NCBI GenBank assembly: GCA_041661865.1
Contig: JBAZTO010000016.1
Span: 2,201 to 66,200 of the forward strand
Direction: 5' to 3'
DNA from: Phycisphaerae bacterium
GTDB taxonomy: Bacteria > Planctomycetota > Phycisphaerae > SM23-33
DNA: 64,000 nt
Both the position numbers and the translations under genes were made by a program. The notes under the pieces were generated by a model, which did no database searches, was not told the DNA's origin, and worked only from the letters and a program-made list of their open reading frames with translations. This document shows, in pieces, positions 52,957-60,746 of the stretch. The stretch's first letter is position 1; every line of letters starts with the position of its first letter.

Positions 52957-54282
52957 TCAGCCGCCGGCGACTTCCCTGACTCGGAAGAGCGTTCGGCAAC
53001 CGTCCACGCTCAGCCCGACTCGGCCGGTGGTCGGCAAGGTGGCGATCTTTTCGCCATTGGCCCAAAGTGTCGTGGAACCGCCCTCCTGGCTCACCTTCAG
53101 GACATCGTCGCCGTTGCCCCGTTTGAGATCGCTCTCGGAGACCGTCGCCCATGCGCCACCCTGGCGGTGCATGATTCGGATCTTGTGATCGCCAATCACC
53201 TGGAAGAGGTGAAACTCCGTCGGCGACTGGTAAGCGAAGACCAGGCCCGCCGCGCCGCCCGCCGTCTGCGGCTGGATGTCCACCGTCAGGGCCTGGGGTG
53301 TCTGTTTCAGGATAGTCATGGCGTTGGCCTTGGATTCGCTCTCAATGGCCTCGCCCCGCTGCTGCCAGCCAATCCAGACGATCTGCCACGGCTGGGAGTG
53401 ACTGACGATCCATTCGCGATACTCCTGGGAAAAACTGGCATAATCGCGACCAAAGGCCCGCTTCCAGGTCTCGTCCGCGTCGGCTCGTTGATCGAGCCCC
53501 GCGCTGAGTTGACGGAACTGGTCGGGGTACTTGTTCACGAGGAAGTGCACCAGGGCCCACGATTCCGGCCGCCCGGCGCGGGGAAGCATAGCACCCAGGT
53601 CGCTGCCGGCCGCTTCAAATTTCCAAAGCGCCTTGGCAGGATAATCCTCCAGCGTGATGGCTGGAATGACGCCGGTCTGAAGGCGCCGGCCATCCCAGTT
53701 GTGCATCGCGAAATACTCCGCGAGGCCCTCGGTATACCAGTTGGTCGATGGAAACTGGTTGCCCGTGGATGTGAGCCAATGGAACTGGTGAGTGGCTTCG
53801 TGCAACAGCACATGCCTCGTGAAGTAGGCCGACGGCTGGACCCAGACGTAGGCCTTTCGTGTGGCTGGAGCATAGTACCCACCGGCATACAACACTGCCT
53901 GGCCATCGGCCTGAAGGGCTGCGGCCCACTTCTCGCGCGTGGCGTAGAGGGCCAGGGGCAGGCGTCCCGAGGGAGCGGATCCAAAATACCGGGTGAGCTG
54001 CGCGTGGAGCTGTTCGAGCATGTTGCCGACCTCGGCTGCGTCCAACCCTTCGACGTAAAGGTCGTAATGCTCGGTTCGCAGCTCCGTGCCGGACCCGCCG
54101 GCAGGCTGGGCCACCACCGACGACGCCACAGCGCTTTGAACGCAGGCGCCCAGGCAGATTACTGCCGCCAGCACCCTTGCCAGGCTGCCAGGGGCGAGGG
54201 AGAAAGGCGGGAAGCTCAACGGCCCGGCCGAGGGAATGCTTTCCGCGAAACGAGAATGCAGAATTCGTTTTGCGTCTGTCAC
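52957..54282 (-). CDS. DUF1570/peptidase MA-like protein (HExxH) with C-terminal beta-sandwich domain
   Basis: GGYY, LLHEATHQF, WYTEGLAEYF, SWALVHFL; C-terminal AGLVF...V.....NG beta domain. Confidence 0.72.
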   Translation of the reverse strand: MTDAKRILHSRFAESIPSAGPLSFPPFSLAPGSLARVLAAVICLGACVQSAVASSVVAQPAGGSGTELRTEHYDLYVEGLDAAEVGNMLEQLHAQLTRYFGSAPSGRLPLALYATREKWAAALQADGQAVLYAGGYYAPATRKAYVWVQPSAYFTRHVLLHEATHQFHWLTSTGNQFPSTNWYTEGLAEYFAMHNWDGRRLQTGVIPAITLEDYPAKALWKFEAAGSDLGAMLPRAGRPESWALVHFLVNKYPDQFRQLSAGLDQRADADETWKRAFGRDYASFSQEYREWIVSHSQPWQIVWIGWQQRGEAIESESKANAMTILKQTPQALTVDIQPQTAGGAAGLVFAYQSPTEFHLFQVIGDHKIRIMHRQGGAWATVSESDLKRGNGDDVLKVSQEGGSTTLWANGEKIATLPTTGRVGLSVDGCRTLFRVREVAGG

Positions 54283-54284
54283 GA

Positions 54285-55253
54285 TTACTCTCCTAGGGAC
54301 CGCTGAAAATCTCTCTCCAACGGTTCAATGGGGCCAAAAACTTCGGCGAATCGTCGCTCGGGGGATTGGCGGCTTTTCGGCCACCCGCTTATGTATTCCT
54401 TGAGTTCCTGACGGTGATGCAGGAACAAGTAGCGAAACAGGCCCCAGGCCTGGGCATACGCGTCTCGGGCGCTTTGGTCCTGCCCTGAGGACAGGCTCAT
54501 CATCCTGACAAAGCTGCTCAGTGGAATTAATCGGCCATTTGCCTTGAGTTGGATCAGCCGGGATCGGTAGCCGGCATCGCTCCGAGACAGGCCGTACGCG
54601 CCCGATTCATCGGCCTCGAAGTTCGTGGCCAGCCCCTCGGTGACCCAAAACGGGTAGTTGACGCCCCTTTGCTGCAGCCCGCTATTGAAGGCCAATTGAT
54701 GGGCCAGTTCGTGGGTGACGGTCCTGAGATTCAGGCCGTCGCTGCCTGAGCCGCTGTAAGATCCGCTGGGGGCGGCGCTAACCGCCGATTGCGCGGAGAT
54801 GCGATTGGACATCCCTCTCGCGCCGCCGGGGAAACGGACGATGGCCACGCGATTGGTGCGGTGCGAATAGTATCCGCCCATCCACGACGCCTCCACGTCG
54901 TCGACCAGACGCGCGTAACTGTCCAACTGCGAATAAGAATCGACGCAGACGCAGACGAGTTTGTCTGACGAAGGCCGGGGCAGGAAGCCCGCGCCCGCAA
55001 AAGATGCGTAAAACTGCTGTCGCACCTGCTCAAGGAAAACGCCCGTGGCGGCCGCCGATGCACCGTCGGCCGAGGACAGCAGAACAAAATGATCCGTTGG
55101 GTGGGCTTGAAGGCTCGCACCGCTTTGGGCTGCCTCGCTGATGCAACGATCAGCATCATTGACCGACGCCGCGATGCCCGTTCCGGAATTGGCGATACGG
55201 CCCCCTGTGAGCAAAGCCAGCGCCACAGCTAACAACCGACGCTTTTGATGCAC
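54285..55253 (-). CDS. DUF1570 domain protein (HExxH zincin-like)
   Basis: Signal peptide; GGYYS, TVTHELAHQLAFNSGL, PFWVTEGLAT.FE, YAQAWGLF.YL. Confidence 0.8.
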   Translation of the reverse strand: MHQKRRLLAVALALLTGGRIANSGTGIAASVNDADRCISEAAQSGASLQAHPTDHFVLLSSADGASAAATGVFLEQVRQQFYASFAGAGFLPRPSSDKLVCVCVDSYSQLDSYARLVDDVEASWMGGYYSHRTNRVAIVRFPGGARGMSNRISAQSAVSAAPSGSYSGSGSDGLNLRTVTHELAHQLAFNSGLQQRGVNYPFWVTEGLATNFEADESGAYGLSRSDAGYRSRLIQLKANGRLIPLSSFVRMMSLSSGQDQSARDAYAQAWGLFRYLFLHHRQELKEYISGWPKSRQSPERRFAEVFGPIEPLERDFQRSLGE

Positions 55254-55774
55254 GCGAACCTCTCAACTCTAACTGCTTAGGCGTAAGGGAAACCAGTACG
55301 CTCGCGTAGGACTACTCTGTAGGCCGTCACAAGTCAAGTCCCTGGCCGTAGCGTCGAGTCGGCAAATCGGGGGGATCGTCAGGCGGCTTGACATGGCAAG
55401 CTCGGCCAAGTCAAGACCGACGGGAGGGTTGAGAGGATTCGCAGGCCGGCAAGCGGCGCGAATTCAACAGGAGAAAAAAAGTGAGAAAAATAGAGAGAAA
55501 GGCGGAAACGGCAAGAGTGCCCCTATGGATCGCAAAAAATAGCCTCCACGCTACAATCTGTCGTAGCATGGAGGCGAGGACTCCACATGCGGTGCCATCA
55601 GCACTCGCGGTGTGACCTGCGTGTCCTTTGGCGTGAGCCCCCCAATCCAGGGGGCGGCTGAGCCACACTTCTTCAGCGGGCCGCTGCCCGGCATCTCCTC
55701 AGCTATAGCCCTGCCGAGGAGTCCCGGGCAGCGTCCACCGCTTGCAGGCCACTTGGTCTTGTCCGCTGCAAGGC

Positions 55775-56752
55775 TTACGGGCCAGTCATGATGAGCACTT
55801 CAACGCGCCCTTCGCGCCGCAGCTTGGGATCGCCGAAAGCGCCGACCTTGATCCTGTCGGACGGCACCCCGTTCTGGATCAGCGAGTCACGCACCGCATC
55901 GACGCGCTGTTCGTTCAGATCCCGGCGAGAACCCGTGTAGCCGTCGATCCCGAGCGTCAGCGACGGGTTGCGCTTCACGTAGTCCGCCATCTCCGCCGTC
56001 ATGCTCCTCTGGGAATCAAGGATGTCGGCGCTGCCGCTGTTGAACCAGAACTCCCTGTAAGAAACCCAGCACGGGACGATGCCCGCAGGGCCTTGCGGAC
56101 CTTTTTCACCCGCAGGGCCTGTGGAGCCTGGAGGGCCTGCCGGTCCCGGCGGGCCGGCTACGACCGCACCAACCGGACCTTGGTTGCCGACCTCACCCGC
56201 AGGGCCTGCAGGGCCGGCAAAACCTGTCGGACCGGCGGGGCCCGCAGGGCCGACCAGCGTTGGCCCCCTATCGCCCACCTCACCGTACGGGCCTGTGGCG
56301 CCTTTAGGTCCGGGCGGACCCACTGGGCCTGTCGGGGCCATTGCCGTTGGGCCCGACTCGCCAAGCGGTCCGGCAGCACCTTCTGGGCCTCGCTGCCCCA
56401 TCGGGCCCACTGGACCCATCGGACCTACTGCAATTTCGCCTGCCGGGCCTCTGGCTCCCGTGGGGCCCTGGTCACCCATCGGACCGGGAGGGCCTTGCGG
56501 TCCAGGAGCACCGACCATCGTGGCCCCCACCGGGCCGCCAGGTCCTGCTGCACCTTGACCGCCCATGGGACCCGCGGGCCCCTGTGGGCCTCGCGCACCC
56601 ACAAAGTCAATCATGCAAACTTCCGGCCGCAGTGAAGGCTCCACCTTGGCACTTGGCTTGCAAATGGGACAGTTGGCACATCCGGCCAGGAACACGGCCG
56701 TCAGGGCCAGCGCCCCTCCTCTCATAATCGCTCTTCGTTCCATCATGTTCAT
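55775..56752 (-). CDS. Lipoprotein: Cys-rich N-terminus - segmented collagen (Gly-X-Y) rod - OmpA-like C-terminal domain
   Basis: Lipobox FLAGC; about 55 Gly-X-Y triplets in six blocks; C-terminal [10 protein letters not shown]...LGIDGYT...[19 protein letters not shown]...RVEV. Confidence 0.88.
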
Positions 56753-57184
56753 CCTACCTTTCTGGCCTGCCGACGGGCCACCCGCAACGTTTGATAACCC
56801 AATTCGAACGCAGTTTTGGGGCCGGCCGATCCTGAAGCGTGCCAGCCTTACGCCTCGGAACCAGCCGTGCTCCACGCGTAAGTCTACGCGGGTGCGAGTG
56901 CGCTTCCGTCGAGCAGCATCCCTGATTCTGTCGTCGGGGCCTTGCTATCCCGCATGCAGGGAAATTCCCGTGGATAATCAAGATTTGCCCCTAAAGGCCA
57001 CGCCGCACACTGCCGGCTGCCCACCTCCATTCCCGCGCCGCGTGTTCGATGTTCCCCCTCGGCGGAGAATATGCCGCTCCCATCTCATCCCTCAAGGAAG
57101 CATGGCCCGGACGGGCTGAAGACATGGAGAATTACACATGAGCTATTTGGGCTCCCCGCGGCCTCCGTGGAGGCCTGCCCCAAA

Positions 57185-57769: not shown

Positions 57770-58987
57770 ATGTTTGGAATGCGAATTGTCGTTGTGACGT
57801 TCTGCGTCACGGCAATCCTGTCGGCCGTGGCCTACGCGGCCGGTGCGCAGGGAACCCAGCCCACTTCCGTCCCGGCTGAAACCCACTTACGAATCGTCTA
57901 TTTCTACAGCCCCACATGCCTCAAATGCGAGGAACTCAAGAAGGTTCTCGACCGCGCGGAAAAACGATGGGGCGACGGGATCTCCATTGAGCGTCACAAC
58001 ATCCAGGAAGCCAAGGGCCTGGACCTGATGCTCGAGTACGAAGACCGGTATGGATCGGAAGAGGCGGCGGCCCCGAAGATATTCCTGGGCAGGCAATACC
58101 TCGCGGGGGCGGACAACATCATGCGGCGCCTCGACGATGTGATCGCCAAGGAACTTCCAGCGGCGCCCACGACCCAGAGCATGCCGGCCAGCACCCCCGC
58201 CGCGACCACTTCGGCCGCAACGACCCGCACGGATTCGGCGGATGAGCAACCCTTGTTCATCAAGCGGTTCGGCTCCTTCCGCGTGGCGGCCCTGATTTCC
58301 GCCGGGCTGATAGACGGGGTCAACCCCTGCGCGTTCACGACGGTCGTGTTTCTGCTCTCCACCCTCACCTACCTGCACAAGAGCCGTCGCGATGTGGCCA
58401 TCGTGGGGACCAGTTTCACCGTTGCCGTCTTTGTGACCTATCTGCTCCTGGGCCTTGGCATGTTCGGCGCCATCAAGGTGTTCGCCGTCTCGCACGGCGT
58501 CTCGGCGGCTCTGACCTACGTCATCGGGGCCTTGACGCTCGCATTGGCGGTCTGGAGCTTCATCGACGGCGTGCGATTCGTCCGGACGGGCAAGGTGCCG
58601 GCCGGTGCCCTGGGCATGCCCCAGTGGGCCAAGAAAGGCGTCCACAAGGTGATCCGGACGGGACTCAAGACCTCCAGCCTGGCCATCGGCTCCTTTGGCA
58701 TGGGATGCCTGGTGTCCCTGTTGGAGTCCGTTTGCACGGGGCAGGTCTACCTGCCCACCATCATGCTCGTCGTCCGAACGCCCGGCCTGAGCCTTCACGC
58801 CTTCGGCTACCTGATCCTGTACAACGTGATGTTCATCCTGCCTCTGGTCGCGATCCTCATTGCCAGCTACTGGTTCACCGGCTCCGACCGCCTAGGCCGG
58901 TTGATGCAACGTCACCTCGGGGCGGCCAAGTTTCTCCTGGCTGCATTGTTCCTGGGGCTGGGCCTGCTGCTGCTGGCAACGGTGTGA
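57770..58987 (+). CDS. Thioredoxin/glutaredoxin-like (CxxC) domain fused to a CcdA/DsbD-like transmembrane domain
   Basis: Signal peptide; YFYSPTCLKC; AGLIDGVNPCAF and LLESVCTGQVY (the two TM Cys); YLILYN.MF.LPL. Confidence 0.85.
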   Translation: MFGMRIVVVTFCVTAILSAVAYAAGAQGTQPTSVPAETHLRIVYFYSPTCLKCEELKKVLDRAEKRWGDGISIERHNIQEAKGLDLMLEYEDRYGSEEAAAPKIFLGRQYLAGADNIMRRLDDVIAKELPAAPTTQSMPASTPAATTSAATTRTDSADEQPLFIKRFGSFRVAALISAGLIDGVNPCAFTTVVFLLSTLTYLHKSRRDVAIVGTSFTVAVFVTYLLLGLGMFGAIKVFAVSHGVSAALTYVIGALTLALAVWSFIDGVRFVRTGKVPAGALGMPQWAKKGVHKVIRTGLKTSSLAIGSFGMGCLVSLLESVCTGQVYLPTIMLVVRTPGLSLHAFGYLILYNVMFILPLVAILIASYWFTGSDRLGRLMQRHLGAAKFLLAALFLGLGLLLLATV

Positions 58988-59076: not shown

Positions 59077-59670
59077 TCAGTCCTTCACGCGGCACTTGAC
59101 CCACAGGGAGATTTGTTTCCGCCGCGGATCATCGGTGACAAGAATCAGCCTGGACACGTAGGGCACGGCCACGTTCGGGGCAACAAATTTAACTTTCACG
59201 CGGGTGGCGCCTGTCGCCGCCAGTTCCTTGGGCGGGTTGACGGCTGTGATGCACCCGCAATCGCCGCGAATCTTGCTGATTCGTACCGTACGGCCTGAGG
59301 GGTTTTCGATCGTGAACGTGACGGTGTGCTTGCTGTCCTTGCGGATCTCCCCGAGATTGCATGTGGCTTCCGTCCCGAAAAACGACGGCATGTGCTTGGC
59401 GGTTCCCTCCACCGGCGCCGGAGCTGTCGCCGTCGTCGGGCCGGAGGACGCCACGGGTTGGGTTGCCTGCACTTCACTGCCGGCCGGGCGCGACTCGGCC
59501 GTCGCGACAGGGCGCACCGACGTCGCCGACGCCACATCGCAGCCCATGAGGATGCTGAGAGTCTCCCACAGCAGGAGTACTGCCGTCAGGCTCAGCAGGC
59601 CCAAGGCGAGTTTACAGCCCGTAACGGTCTGATAGACGCACTTGGCGCCCGCCGGGTCGAACCTTCTCAT
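59077..59670 (-). CDS. DUF1573 (Ig-like) domain exported protein
   Basis: N-terminal TM helix, Pro/Thr linker, NLGEI....H.VTFTIEN.S...V.I..I.GDCGCIT. Confidence 0.78.
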   Translation of the reverse strand: MRRFDPAGAKCVYQTVTGCKLALGLLSLTAVLLLWETLSILMGCDVASATSVRPVATAESRPAGSEVQATQPVASSGPTTATAPAPVEGTAKHMPSFFGTEATCNLGEIRKDSKHTVTFTIENPSGRTVRISKIRGDCGCITAVNPPKELAATGATRVKVKFVAPNVAVPYVSRLILVTDDPRRKQISLWVKCRVKD

Positions 59671-60068
59671 AACGACCTCTTTTCCTTGGCGCCTGCCGGG
59701 CCGACCGGCCCTCGCGACGCCCCCATCCGTCCGGCCATTTTATCGCGAGATACCACAAACCTTCAAGGAACAGGATATCCCAGCAAGTCGGCATGAATTG
59801 AGCATGACCGAAATCGCTTCCCGGGCGGAAGCCGCAGCCAACCCGCGTGGGCATTGGCATCGGCCACGTAATCGGGGCTCGCGGCGAGAATCTGTCGCCA
59901 ACAGGCGCCACACCGTCATGCCGCGGATAGCACAAATATAATGTGTGCTTTGCGGCCTCGCCCCCAGCAGGGAAAGGCGTAAAGGCATAAGTGCCGATAA
60001 TTGTTTTGTGGGCAAGGATCTGTTTGTTACAGTAATTGGTGATTACTGTTTGCGAAGGAGAGAACGCG

Positions 60069-60746
60069 ATGATATCAGCCGCAATCCACAGCACCGGTTC
60101 GATCACCATCCCCCGTGCGGTTTCCGCTTGTGCCTGCTTCCTGGCTTGCACAGCCCTGGCCATTGGGAGCGCCGGCTGCGCCGAGGGCAACATCAGGCCC
60201 GTCAGCGAAACGGCGGACTTTCACAGGCAAATCGCCCGGTCCGACCGGCCGGTCCTGGTGGACTTCTACAAGGACAACTGCCCGACGTGCGTCATTCAAG
60301 AAGCTGAGCTGGATCAATTGCAGCAGGAGTATGGCGGCCGCGTGACGTTCATCAAGTTCAAGATCCGCGAAGCCACCATGGAGAGCGCCAGCCCGGAAGT
60401 CATGGACGAGTACAACCTGTTCTGGGTGCCGACGGTGATCCTCTTCGTCAAGGGTCAGGAAAAGCAACGCTGGGTTTTCAATCACCTCGCCGCGGAGTTT
60501 CGAGACCCCCTGGACCTGGCCCTGGCCAAGACGTCGCCGCAGGTCGCCGCGGGCAGGCCGGGGCAAGTGCCGGCCGGGAATACCACCCCCCCTGCCCCTA
60601 CAGGGTCAGCCCAGGTGCTGGCCAAGAAACCCGTACCCCCCGCTGCTCCTCCAGCAGCCGGCACGTGTACGGGGCAGGGATGCCCTCTTTACAGACCAGG
60701 CCCATCGGCCAATCTGGGAGCATTGGACCCAAGGAGTCCTAAATGA
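60069..60746 (+). CDS. Thioredoxin-fold lipoprotein (CPTC)
   Basis: SAGC lipobox-like; RPVLVDFYKDNCPTC; VPTVILFVKGQE; Pro-rich tail. Confidence 0.85.
   Translation: MISAAIHSTGSITIPRAVSACACFLACTALAIGSAGCAEGNIRPVSETADFHRQIARSDRPVLVDFYKDNCPTCVIQEAELDQLQQEYGGRVTFIKFKIREATMESASPEVMDEYNLFWVPTVILFVKGQEKQRWVFNHLAAEFRDPLDLALAKTSPQVAAGRPGQVPAGNTTPPAPTGSAQVLAKKPVPPAAPPAAGTCTGQGCPLYRPGPSANLGALDPRSPK

Follow-up and report, generated by a model that had tools for sequence, protein, structure and literature searches.

We analysed a 64,000 nt window of DNA from a Phycisphaerae bacterium (Planctomycetota; assembly GCA_041661865.1, contig JBAZTO010000016.1, positions 2,201 to 66,200 of the forward strand), in which a gene on the minus strand, at window positions 55775–56752, encodes a 325-residue lipoprotein-like protein with a collagen-like rod and a C-terminal OmpA-like domain. 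The lattice of the rod, covariation between its blocks and a pair of coupled cysteines at its ends suggest that this protein assembles into a head-to-tail, sticky-ended, three-stranded collagen rope. We regard this as the best explanation, at a rough probability of 45%, and if correct it would be the first natural 'sticky-ended' collagen, a cable stitching membrane to cell wall in Planctomycetota. A preliminary description of the same DNA had read the protein as a trimeric, collagen-based ruler that spans the distance from membrane to peptidoglycan. The finding is real, conserved and unusual, and the idea of an envelope connector stands, while a better reading than the in-register ruler is available. 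The fixed 29-residue lattice, the rule of 3k blocks plus one triplet, the coupled junction cysteines and the inter-block covariation are new; the component parts are of known kinds.

The rod and its 29-residue lattice

The reading frame comprises 325 codons and a stop, and its translation is free of internal stops; a GTG at 56875 offers a possible extension, and the homologues in the family alignment (A1) begin instead at a Met-rich signal peptide. The rod, residues 52–226 (56075–56599; all features of the protein lie on the minus strand), matched the Pfam Collagen model (PF01391) with 65.9 bits against a gathering threshold of 27.2 (E = 2.8e-18). In the frame given by the invariant Gly columns of the family, it totals 175 residues, arranged as five blocks of nine Gly-X-Y triplets and a last block of ten, with Gly replaced at A139 and V197. 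Read along this chain, the block ends are joined to their dipeptides as GAT-MV, GEI-AV, GPT-AM, GPT-LV and GAV-VA. The preliminary description had listed these blocks and dipeptides and one Gly-to-Ala replacement, and both were found as listed, the replacement being A139; the last part, however, parses better in the family frame as block 5 of nine triplets, a linker G195-A196, and block 6 of ten triplets whose first Gly is V197.

The five linkers are accordingly M79-V80 (56513–56518), an interruption of the G4G type, that is, two extra residues between Gly-X-Y runs; A108-V109 (56426–56431); A137-M138 (56339–56344), after which A139 replaces Gly; L166-V167 (56252–56257); and G195-A196 (56165–56170), after which V197 replaces Gly. 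Linker 4 lies within the most conserved motif of the rod, T-L-V-G-P-x-G-P, in which T165, G168, P169 and G171 are invariant and L166 and P172 nearly so. A further dipeptide, F50-V51 (56600–56605), directly precedes the rod, is conserved as [FLIWM]-V and resembles a sixth linker; across the family, position −2 was F, L, I, W or M in 68 of 72 sequences and position −1 was V in 57 of 72. At its other end the rod exits into P227-C228-W229, with C228 (56069–56071) two residues past the last triplet and adjoining the invariant W229, and the family consensus from there on is x-x-W-[TV]-S-Y-R-[DE]-F-W-F.

A protein search returned ~80 proteins with Collagen and OmpA domains at 38–57% identity, and further members came from a profile search of a library of 50% representatives and from scans of genomes and metagenomes. 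The protein collection contains 308 members at E ≤ 1e-10, and 257 loci were confirmed in metagenomes. All 15 genome matches were metagenome-assembled genomes (MAGs), ten of them assigned to Phycisphaerae, Phycisphaerales or Phycisphaeraceae and the other five to Pirellulales, Planctomycetaceae, unclassified Planctomycetota, Opitutaceae and an unclassified bacterium, one each. The sources of the family were environmental metagenomes and MAGs, including groundwater, peat and sediment; the present sequence derives from a groundwater metagenome. A full-text literature search for the combination of collagen-like, OmpA and Planctomycetes, or for this architecture, found no description of it, and the family is previously undescribed.

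Among 173 distinct rods with a complete N-terminal side, ~134 (~77%) kept the lattice of 9-2-9-2-9-2-9-2-9-2-10 triplets and dipeptides, 175 residues in all; this periodicity is far beyond chance in rods that share only 38–57% identity with the present protein. The 29-residue unit has the consensus GPxGPxGPxGPxGxQGxxGxTGAxGxx followed by two hydrophobic residues. Pro occupied 35% of X positions and 3% of Y positions, where small residues dominate, and Gly made up exactly one third of the rod, with only 1.2% of X and Y positions being Gly. The block number, which the preliminary description had proposed to survey in homologues, is mostly six; clean variants with three blocks (P0231, P0101 and P0381) and with nine blocks (P0138 and L094) were found, each with one extra triplet, whereas no clean form with 4, 5, 7 or 8 blocks was found. 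The nine-block P0138 also shows an odd combination, an Ice_binding-like domain (PF11999) in place of the lipid anchor, together with the rod and an OmpA-like domain.

Proteins of ~137 amino acids that consist of an OmpA-like domain standing alone were considered as rod-free relatives and rejected, as all of them start inside block 5 or 6 and are truncated gene calls, often beginning at the Met of an 'MA' linker. Entries P0261–P0380 include dozens of such calls of ~106–150 amino acids, named 'OmpA-like peptidoglycan-associated protein' or 'Pal'. Since the truncated calls start inside the rod, this domain subfamily appears to be always rod-attached, and public annotation hides the collagen part.

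Covariation and the register of the strands

Because the lattice has no gaps, covariation could be measured on exact columns. Mutual information with average product correction was calculated on a gap-free alignment of the 134 rods, with an effective number of sequences (Neff) of 60, and pairs were grouped by their separation along the chain. The top separation classes were 59 (t = 7.8), 118 (t = 5.3), 56 (t = 5.1) and 58 (t = 4.4), compared with t = 4.3 for immediate neighbours (i+1); separation 121 reached t = 2.4, separation 29 was weak and separations 87–89 gave no signal in these rods. In 20 of 20 random half-sets separation 59 ranked first among ~142 long-range classes, and 118 had a median rank of 2. 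The maximum t under a column-shuffle null was 3.3. Supportively, bootstrap intervals for the classes 'two blocks, +1' and 'four blocks, +2' excluded zero, and the controls at odd block separations were at or below zero.

The most strongly covarying pairs have the appearance of salt bridges. Rod position 6, a D or E at Y, covaried with position 124, an R at X (D-R 46 times, E-R 18 times), and position 55, a D at X, covaried with position 111, a K at Y (D-K 30 times), the equivalent pair in the present protein being E106-R162; the 55/111 pair resembles a bridge of the K-G-D type, made here between blocks. Two other treatments of the same rods were discarded. A 58-residue super-repeat was considered as the source of the 58–59 signal and rejected, as the similarity between blocks merely decays with distance and shows no odd and even classes. 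Enrichment of opposite charges by separation was raised at 56, 59 and 118, and also at 31 and 88, and was too noisy to be specific.

In canonical collagen geometry, with strands in the order n+4, n+2, n and a one-residue stagger, the expected separations are 59 and 118 for lateral X–Y contacts, and 56 and 121 for axial Y-to-X' contacts. The agreement of the covarying classes with this geometry is indirect evidence of a triple helix and indicates that blocks two apart are probably neighbours in a collagen-type helix. These separations also bear on the 'ruler' of the preliminary description: the rod length on which it depended is indeed conserved, but an in-register homotrimer should produce contacts at separations of 1, 2 and 5 instead of 59, 118 and 56.

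A rope of many molecules would account for these contacts as follows. In each of the three strands, molecules would lie head to tail, and each strand would be shifted from the next by 59 residues, that is, by two 29-residue blocks plus the one-residue stagger that the collagen helix requires, so that blocks n, n+2 and n+4 from three different molecules would wind together. The hydrophobic two-residue interruptions would then be aligned at consecutive positions, with F50-V51 serving as a sixth interruption, and the tenth triplet of the last block would close a repeat of 177 residues. The collagen rise is 0.286 nm per residue. The repeat of such a rope would thus be ~50 nm, with a nick every 59 residues, or ~17 nm. 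Its register would be set by the periodic interruptions, the inter-block salt bridges and the one extra triplet.

The arithmetic of the rod agrees with this arrangement. The pre-rod dipeptide and the rod together make 2 + 175 = 177 = 3 × 59 residues, with 59 = 2 × 29 + 1 and the rod as 5 × 29 + 30, and three one-residue staggers require three extra residues, which is just what the tenth triplet would provide. The interruptions then come to stand consecutively at each level, as the sets {linkers 1, 3, 5} and {nick, linkers 2, 4}. The variants follow the same rule, with repeats of 90 = 3 × 30 residues for three blocks and 264 = 3 × 88 for nine. The arithmetic closes only for a many-chain arrangement and not for a single-chain zig-zag.

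The cysteines that flank the rod, which the preliminary description had pointed out (CANCPIC..C before it, PCW after it), are present as C28, C31, C46 and C228. C46, six residues ahead of the first rod Gly, and C228 are members of a pair that is coupled across the family: one Cys 5–9 residues ahead of the rod and another two residues beyond its end occurred together in 33 sequences and were both absent from 98, and since three apparent single-Cys cases proved to be the lipid-modified Cys, there were no true singles. A neighbour-joining tree gave ~7 independent transitions of the pair. At a nick of the rope, C228 of one molecule would meet C46 of the next, and a disulfide between them could make the strand covalent in Cys-bearing members. 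The pair is also found in the three-block proteins P0101 and P0381, two sequences from separate assemblies that share 78% identity. A head-to-tail nick brings both cysteines together at any block number, whereas an odd block number puts the ends of a chain folded back on itself at opposite poles, so that the ends of the three-block proteins cannot meet within the chain.

Such an intramolecular fold-back is the first of three other ways to read the rod, and we consider it unlikely. Blocks 1, 3 and 5 would run up and blocks 2, 4 and 6 down, forming either two antiparallel three-stranded helices or a polyproline II (PPII) bundle ~8 nm long; the tether and the OmpA-like domain would exit at the same end, C46 and C228 would form an intrachain staple, and the protein would be a compact monomeric strut on peptidoglycan. 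AlphaFold2 (AF2) did fold the chain back in this way, both in the full protein (predicted template modelling score, pTM, 0.60) and in the rod alone (pTM 0.40). The predicted local distance difference test (pLDDT) oscillated with a period of ~58 residues, reaching 84–91 at both ends of the rod and at linkers 2 and 4, and I107-A108 was bridged to L166-V167, 59 residues apart. The covariation at 59 and 118 is explained equally well if the contacts are intramolecular, six blocks put both cysteines at the same end, no trimerisation domain would be needed, and a fixed block number would be a constraint of the fold. However, pLDDT fell below 50 around linkers 1, 3 and 5, exactly at the crossover end. 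Three strands set 120 degrees apart cannot all cross to an adjacent helix with two residues, and the linkers are hydrophobic, beta-branched dipeptides of the G4G type flanked by Pro (T-LV-G-P), which makes them poor turns and likens them to interruptions tolerated in a continuous helix; two-residue gaps were the commonest interruption in the other collagens retrieved too. No antiparallel covariation ladder was seen, separations of 7–24 across linkers averaging ~0 and the sum classes of adjacent blocks reaching a maximum t of 2.6 against 7.8 at separation 59. The three- and nine-block relatives cannot zig-zag into parallel triplets, although the three-block ones keep the Cys pair, and the tenth triplet is left without a role.

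One form of this fold, a flat PPII bundle of two layers like that of snow-flea antifreeze protein, was rejected separately. The PPII bundles of snow-flea antifreeze protein, the Obg N-domain and phage gp38 share with the rod Gly-x-x blocks joined by short connections, but their inner helices are about two thirds Gly and ~10 residues long (bioRxiv 10.1101/2023.11.25.568672), in contrast to a rod of one-third Gly, too low for such packing, with 27-residue blocks and hydrophobic, beta-branched linkers. Foldseek found no PDB analogue for the rod model, and the antiparallel covariation expected of such a bundle is missing.

The second reading, which we hold improbable, is a blunt, in-register homotrimer ~50 nm long, kinked at the five G4G interruptions and acting as a membrane-to-peptidoglycan ruler or tether like Lpp or Pal. 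In its favour, this assembly mode is the one assumed for known bacterial collagen-like proteins, in-register chains align the interruptions as well, and one-third Gly, Pro mainly at X and the Pfam Collagen match are what it would require. The conserved rod length agrees with it, and irregular length variants would be tolerated; an extra Cys beside the lipid-modified one (C-x-C, in 38 of the 93 members with a lipobox) could knot the trimer, and lipoprotein length can set the width of the periplasm, as Lpp shows (PMC5736177, PMC8824477). It predicts contacts at separations of 1, 2 and 5, though, while the strongest signals are at 56, 59 and 118, and it leaves unexplained the strict coupling of cysteines 50 nm apart, the tenth triplet, the pre-rod [FL]V and the block numbers 3, 6 and 9. 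A single Cys per chain at each end cannot close a knot, and 50 nm exceeds the usual distance from membrane to peptidoglycan, with some tethers of only 9 residues. K-G-E and K-G-D triplets, which are typical stabilisers of blunt helices (PMC11923368), made up 0.2% of triplets here against 3.7% in the other collagens retrieved. Their frequency was tried as a test of a true triple helix and set aside as not decisive, since R-G-D and R-G-E (2.1%) partly compensate in Arg-rich genomes.

The third reading keeps conventional trimer folding and places the stagger between helices: blunt trimers, aligned laterally and end to end and offset from one another by 59 residues, would build up a D-periodic fibril or sheet as in animal collagen. 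The long-range covariation and the head-to-tail Cys pair would be explained, and the end product would resemble the rope in being a staggered polymer anchored to both membrane and peptidoglycan. We nevertheless judge it quite improbable, as the covariation is residue-sharp and falls into exactly the X–Y and Y-to-X' classes of contacts within a helix, where packing between helices should give a broader signal, and neither multiples of three blocks nor an extra triplet are required by it.

The three-stranded rope has its closest parallel in synthetic peptides. In sticky-ended symmetric self-assembly, strands are offset by one third of the peptide, an offset set by axial Lys-Asp bridges and in earlier designs enforced by interstrand disulfides, and the product is a continuous triple-helical nanofibre (PMC10797479). 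The rod shares with these designed peptides, of the Hartgerink (PKG)4(POG)4(DOG)4 type and those of Raines, a uniform one-third offset (177 = 3 × 59) that keeps the Gly stagger, sequence-specific pairs at separations of 59, 118 and 56 that include inter-block D-K and D/E-R combinations, and a Cys pair at the junction. The designed peptides differ in being synthetic, 33–42 residues long and dependent on hydroxyproline, whereas the rod is genetically encoded and 175 residues long, carries periodic interruptions that would serve as register marks, and would bear a lipid anchor and an OmpA-like domain at its nicks. Collectively, these features suggest that the rod assembles by a principle for which designed peptides have so far been the only examples.

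The interruptions themselves are of a known kind. Non-fibrillar collagens contain G4G interruptions (GAAVM in type IV is an example) in which two extra, typically hydrophobic residues likewise stand between Gly-X-Y runs, and in the model peptides of Brodsky and colleagues such interruptions are reportedly accommodated inside a continuous triple helix. The animal interruptions are irregular and chain-specific, while those of the rod recur every 29 residues at positions conserved throughout the family.

Attachment to membrane and peptidoglycan

The N-terminus carries a positively charged n-region, a hydrophobic h-region and a lipobox of the form [LVI][ASTVI][GAS]C, here L-A-G-C25 (signal peptide and lipobox, 56678–56752), whose lipid-modified C25 is invariant in the family alignment, and the protein is thus a predicted bacterial lipoprotein and signal peptidase II substrate. 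A lipobox-like motif was found upstream of 93 of the 134 canonical rods. The tether, residues 26–51, reads CANCPIC...C46MIDFV and closes with F50-V51; the part before that dipeptide, residues 26–49 with C28, C31 and C46, lies at 56606–56677. Tethers in the family are variable and of low complexity, with lengths of 9–61 residues and a median of 26. In the 38 lipobox-bearing members mentioned above, the extra Cys stands 1–4 residues past the lipid-modified one (C-x-C, C-C or C-x-x-C), and in the present protein it takes the form C25-A-N-C28-P-I-C31 (residues 26–31, 56660–56677); such cysteines might be metal ligands or link chains through disulfides at the membrane.

The OmpA-like domain, residues 229–325 (55778–56068), ends in ...VLIMTGP and matched Pfam OmpA (PF00691) with 37.7 bits against a gathering threshold of 27.2 (E = 2.7e-9). 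AF2 modelled it with pLDDT ~95 and a strand and helix order of E-H-E-H-E-E, and Foldseek matched it to OprF-C, Pal, AbOmpA and MotB at probability 1.0; when the full AF2 model was searched, matches were confined to this domain. Translation, Pfam, AF2 and Foldseek thus bear out the lipobox, collagen rod and C-terminal OmpA-like domain of the preliminary description. That description had also remarked that GYTG replaces the GHTD of peptidoglycan-binding domains. In an HMMER alignment to OprF and OmpA chains, GYTG (residues 271–274) indeed falls on GHTD, so that the canonical Asp is Gly274 here, but this is not a trait of the family: an 84%-identical relative carries GYTD, the position is D in 37% of members, N in 25% and another residue in 38%, and the Asp loss is lineage-specific. 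The partner Arg (R283, in LSxxRA), which together with that Asp holds the diaminopimelate of peptidoglycan in such domains, was kept in 134 of 137 family sequences. The number of tandem OmpA-like domains ranges from one to three among members, and in P0160 and P0169 the lipid anchor is swapped for three BON (membrane-binding) domains. The lipobox, the OmpA-like fold, the conserved Arg and the BON relatives have their natural reading in a periplasmic membrane-to-peptidoglycan connector, as the preliminary description had suggested for a collagen-based lipoprotein.

The 45–50 nm spacer of that description is not supported, and tethers of down to 9 residues and ordinary periplasm widths speak against its standing perpendicular over such a length. 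In a rope, each nick would release a lipid tether to the membrane and one OmpA-like domain (up to three in relatives) to the peptidoglycan. The rope would run parallel to the envelope, as a periplasmic cable or belt between membrane and sacculus that ties both at many points; a periplasm 50 nm wide would then no longer be needed, in agreement with the shortest tethers. The sequences show the domain make-up, the conserved lattice, the covariation between blocks, the coupling of the cysteines and the rule of block numbers; from these we infer the intermolecular nature of the contacts, the disulfide, the peptidoglycan binding, the membrane that holds the lipid anchor and the mechanical role.

The proteins most like this one in plan are the Pal-type lipoproteins (Pal, YiaD, LptF and PA1041), with which it shares the N-terminal lipid anchor, the C-terminal OmpA-like fold and the Arg of the diaminopimelate pocket, and presumably the same noncovalent tying of membrane to sacculus. 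It differs in having a 175-residue collagen-like rod where Pal has a short flexible linker, and the family carries one to three OmpA-like domains and conserves the Asp only partly. The protein is not a Pal, as it lacks Pal-level scores and a tol-pal context: the Pal equivalogs TIGR02802 and PRK10802 scored 24 bits against a cut-off of 125 and 14 against 261, and neither tolB nor tolA is among the neighbours in the window. Altogether, no curated NCBIfam family model covers the protein. With Lpp the likeness would be one of analogy, a lipoprotein oligomer that joins outer membrane to peptidoglycan. Lpp, though, is an alpha-helical coiled-coil trimer of ~8 nm attached covalently to peptidoglycan through a C-terminal Lys, whereas here the AF2 model contains no helix outside the OmpA-like domain, the C-terminal Lys is absent, and a collagen-like rod, attachment through an OmpA-like domain and a putative staggered polymer take their place.

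Other bacterial collagen-like proteins (Scl1/Scl2, BclA, Lcl, Bucl and Bcc-CLP) share with the rod its Gly-X-Y repeat, Pro at X, Thr, Gln and Ala at Y, the lack of hydroxyproline and the PF01391 match. Most of those characterised are surface adhesins, and the Burkholderia Bcc-CLPs, which are lipoproteins as well, have been proposed to act as adhesins (PMC10224339). On this ground the present protein might be a surface-exposed, collagen-like adhesin whose OmpA-like domain lost peptidoglycan binding, and partial NCBIfam matches to SclB, Lcl and SclA, the missing Asp and the one relative with an ice-binding-like domain could be read in that sense. We consider this highly improbable. The adhesin models NF038330, NF038329 and NF046116 (SclA/SclB, Lcl) scored 51 against 400, 72 against 325 and 59 against 500, far under their cut-offs, and the sequence contains no LPXTG motif, adhesin head domain, autotransporter or other export module. 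The pocket Arg is kept nearly throughout, and the sources of the family are environmental and not host-associated. Known bacterial collagen regions are mostly uninterrupted, variable between strains in repeat number and flanked by globular trimerisation domains or LPXTG, and those of adhesins vary in length, in contrast to the fixed lattice, the 3k blocks, the periplasmic context and the out-of-register covariation found here.

Several results weigh against the rope. The evidence for it consists of sequence statistics throughout, at a Neff of ~60, and covariation cannot separate intermolecular from intramolecular contacts; charge-pair counts alone do not single out the proposed offsets, and since a blunt trimer aligns the interruptions equally well, the staggered register must come from side-chain pairs. 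The AF2 monomer models, the only three-dimensional models at hand, fold the chain back with locally high confidence, which is not decisive, as only by such folding can contacts at separation 59 be satisfied in a model of a single chain. A divergent subfamily, 13 of the 173 rods (among them P0059, P0060, P0065, P0069, P0072, P0075, P0076, P0078 and P0218), has a three-residue fifth linker consisting of Glu and two further residues (E-LV, E-MA or E-LY), a last block of nine triplets and a variable Gly-rich spacer before the Trp, and it fits the 177-residue lattice only with a Glu bulge and 'A-x-x' as the last triplet. Irregular forms that break the lattice also occur (P0054, P0047, P0220, P0193 and P0068); some of these may be assembly artefacts, and near-duplicate blocks in P0054 suggest misassembly. 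Furthermore, no trimerisation or nucleation domain is evident in the protein, its own OmpA-like domain is without the canonical peptidoglycan-binding Asp, and no conserved operon or gene partner that would point to a function was found in the window and four homologue loci.

The envelope architecture of Planctomycetota is still debated. If the rope is real, some of these bacteria, and perhaps other members of the Planctomycetes-Verrucomicrobia-Chlamydiae (PVC) group in view of the one Opitutaceae MAG match, would tie membrane to sacculus by a polymeric collagen cable, as opposed to the discrete tethers Lpp, Pal and OmpA, and the offset-register assembly devised de novo by peptide chemists would prove to have a counterpart in nature. 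The register code would be readable and evolutionarily tuned, consisting of the 29-residue lattice, the extra triplet, the inter-block charge pairs and the junction cysteines, and it could be applied to make recombinant collagen materials that self-assemble and are free of hydroxyproline. Gap-free repeat lattices would also let covariation reveal assembly registers that monomer structure prediction misreads. If the chain instead folds back on itself, an 8-nm single-chain collagen-like domain would be a new fold.

Gene surroundings and expression

A terminator-like hairpin with a 15-bp GC-rich stem and a T run lies ~200 nt past the stop codon (55532–55575, minus strand), which suggests a monocistronic transcript with a long 3′ untranslated region. 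The neighbours of the gene comprise two DUF1570 genes, gcvH, a DUF1573 gene and thioredoxin-like genes. The two DUF1570 paralogues stand in tandem directly downstream (52957–54282 and 54285–55253, both minus strand). Together with the DUF1573 gene, they suggest a planctomycete. DUF1570 is a planctomycete-typical domain of unknown function, and the 322-residue copy contains HELAHQ, an HExxH-type motif that suggests a metallopeptidase-like protein.

Just upstream is a cluster of the envelope thiol-redox type (57770–58987 and 60036–60746, plus strand; 59077–59670, minus strand). It includes a 405-residue membrane protein with an N-terminal thioredoxin-like CxxC (SPTCLKCEEL), a DsbD/CcdA-like 'NPCA' membrane part and only a weak NCBIfam match, which is adjoined by a thioredoxin-domain protein and the DUF1573 protein. 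These genes may be relevant to a Cys-rich periplasmic protein, or their position may be a coincidence.

Two open reading frames run antisense over the collagen region, at 55742–56635 (plus strand, 297 amino acids) and 56079–56558 (plus strand, 159 amino acids). They are by-products of the GGN-CCN-rich repeat and not genes, and could mislead gene callers. Either this gene or a close orthologue is apparently transcribed in the environment: contigs from sediment metatranscriptomes (runs X20 and X4) matched 55887–56075 and 56166–56455 at 96–98% identity. In addition, 5–17% of the 31-mers of the gene were common to many peat, freshwater and sediment metagenomes.

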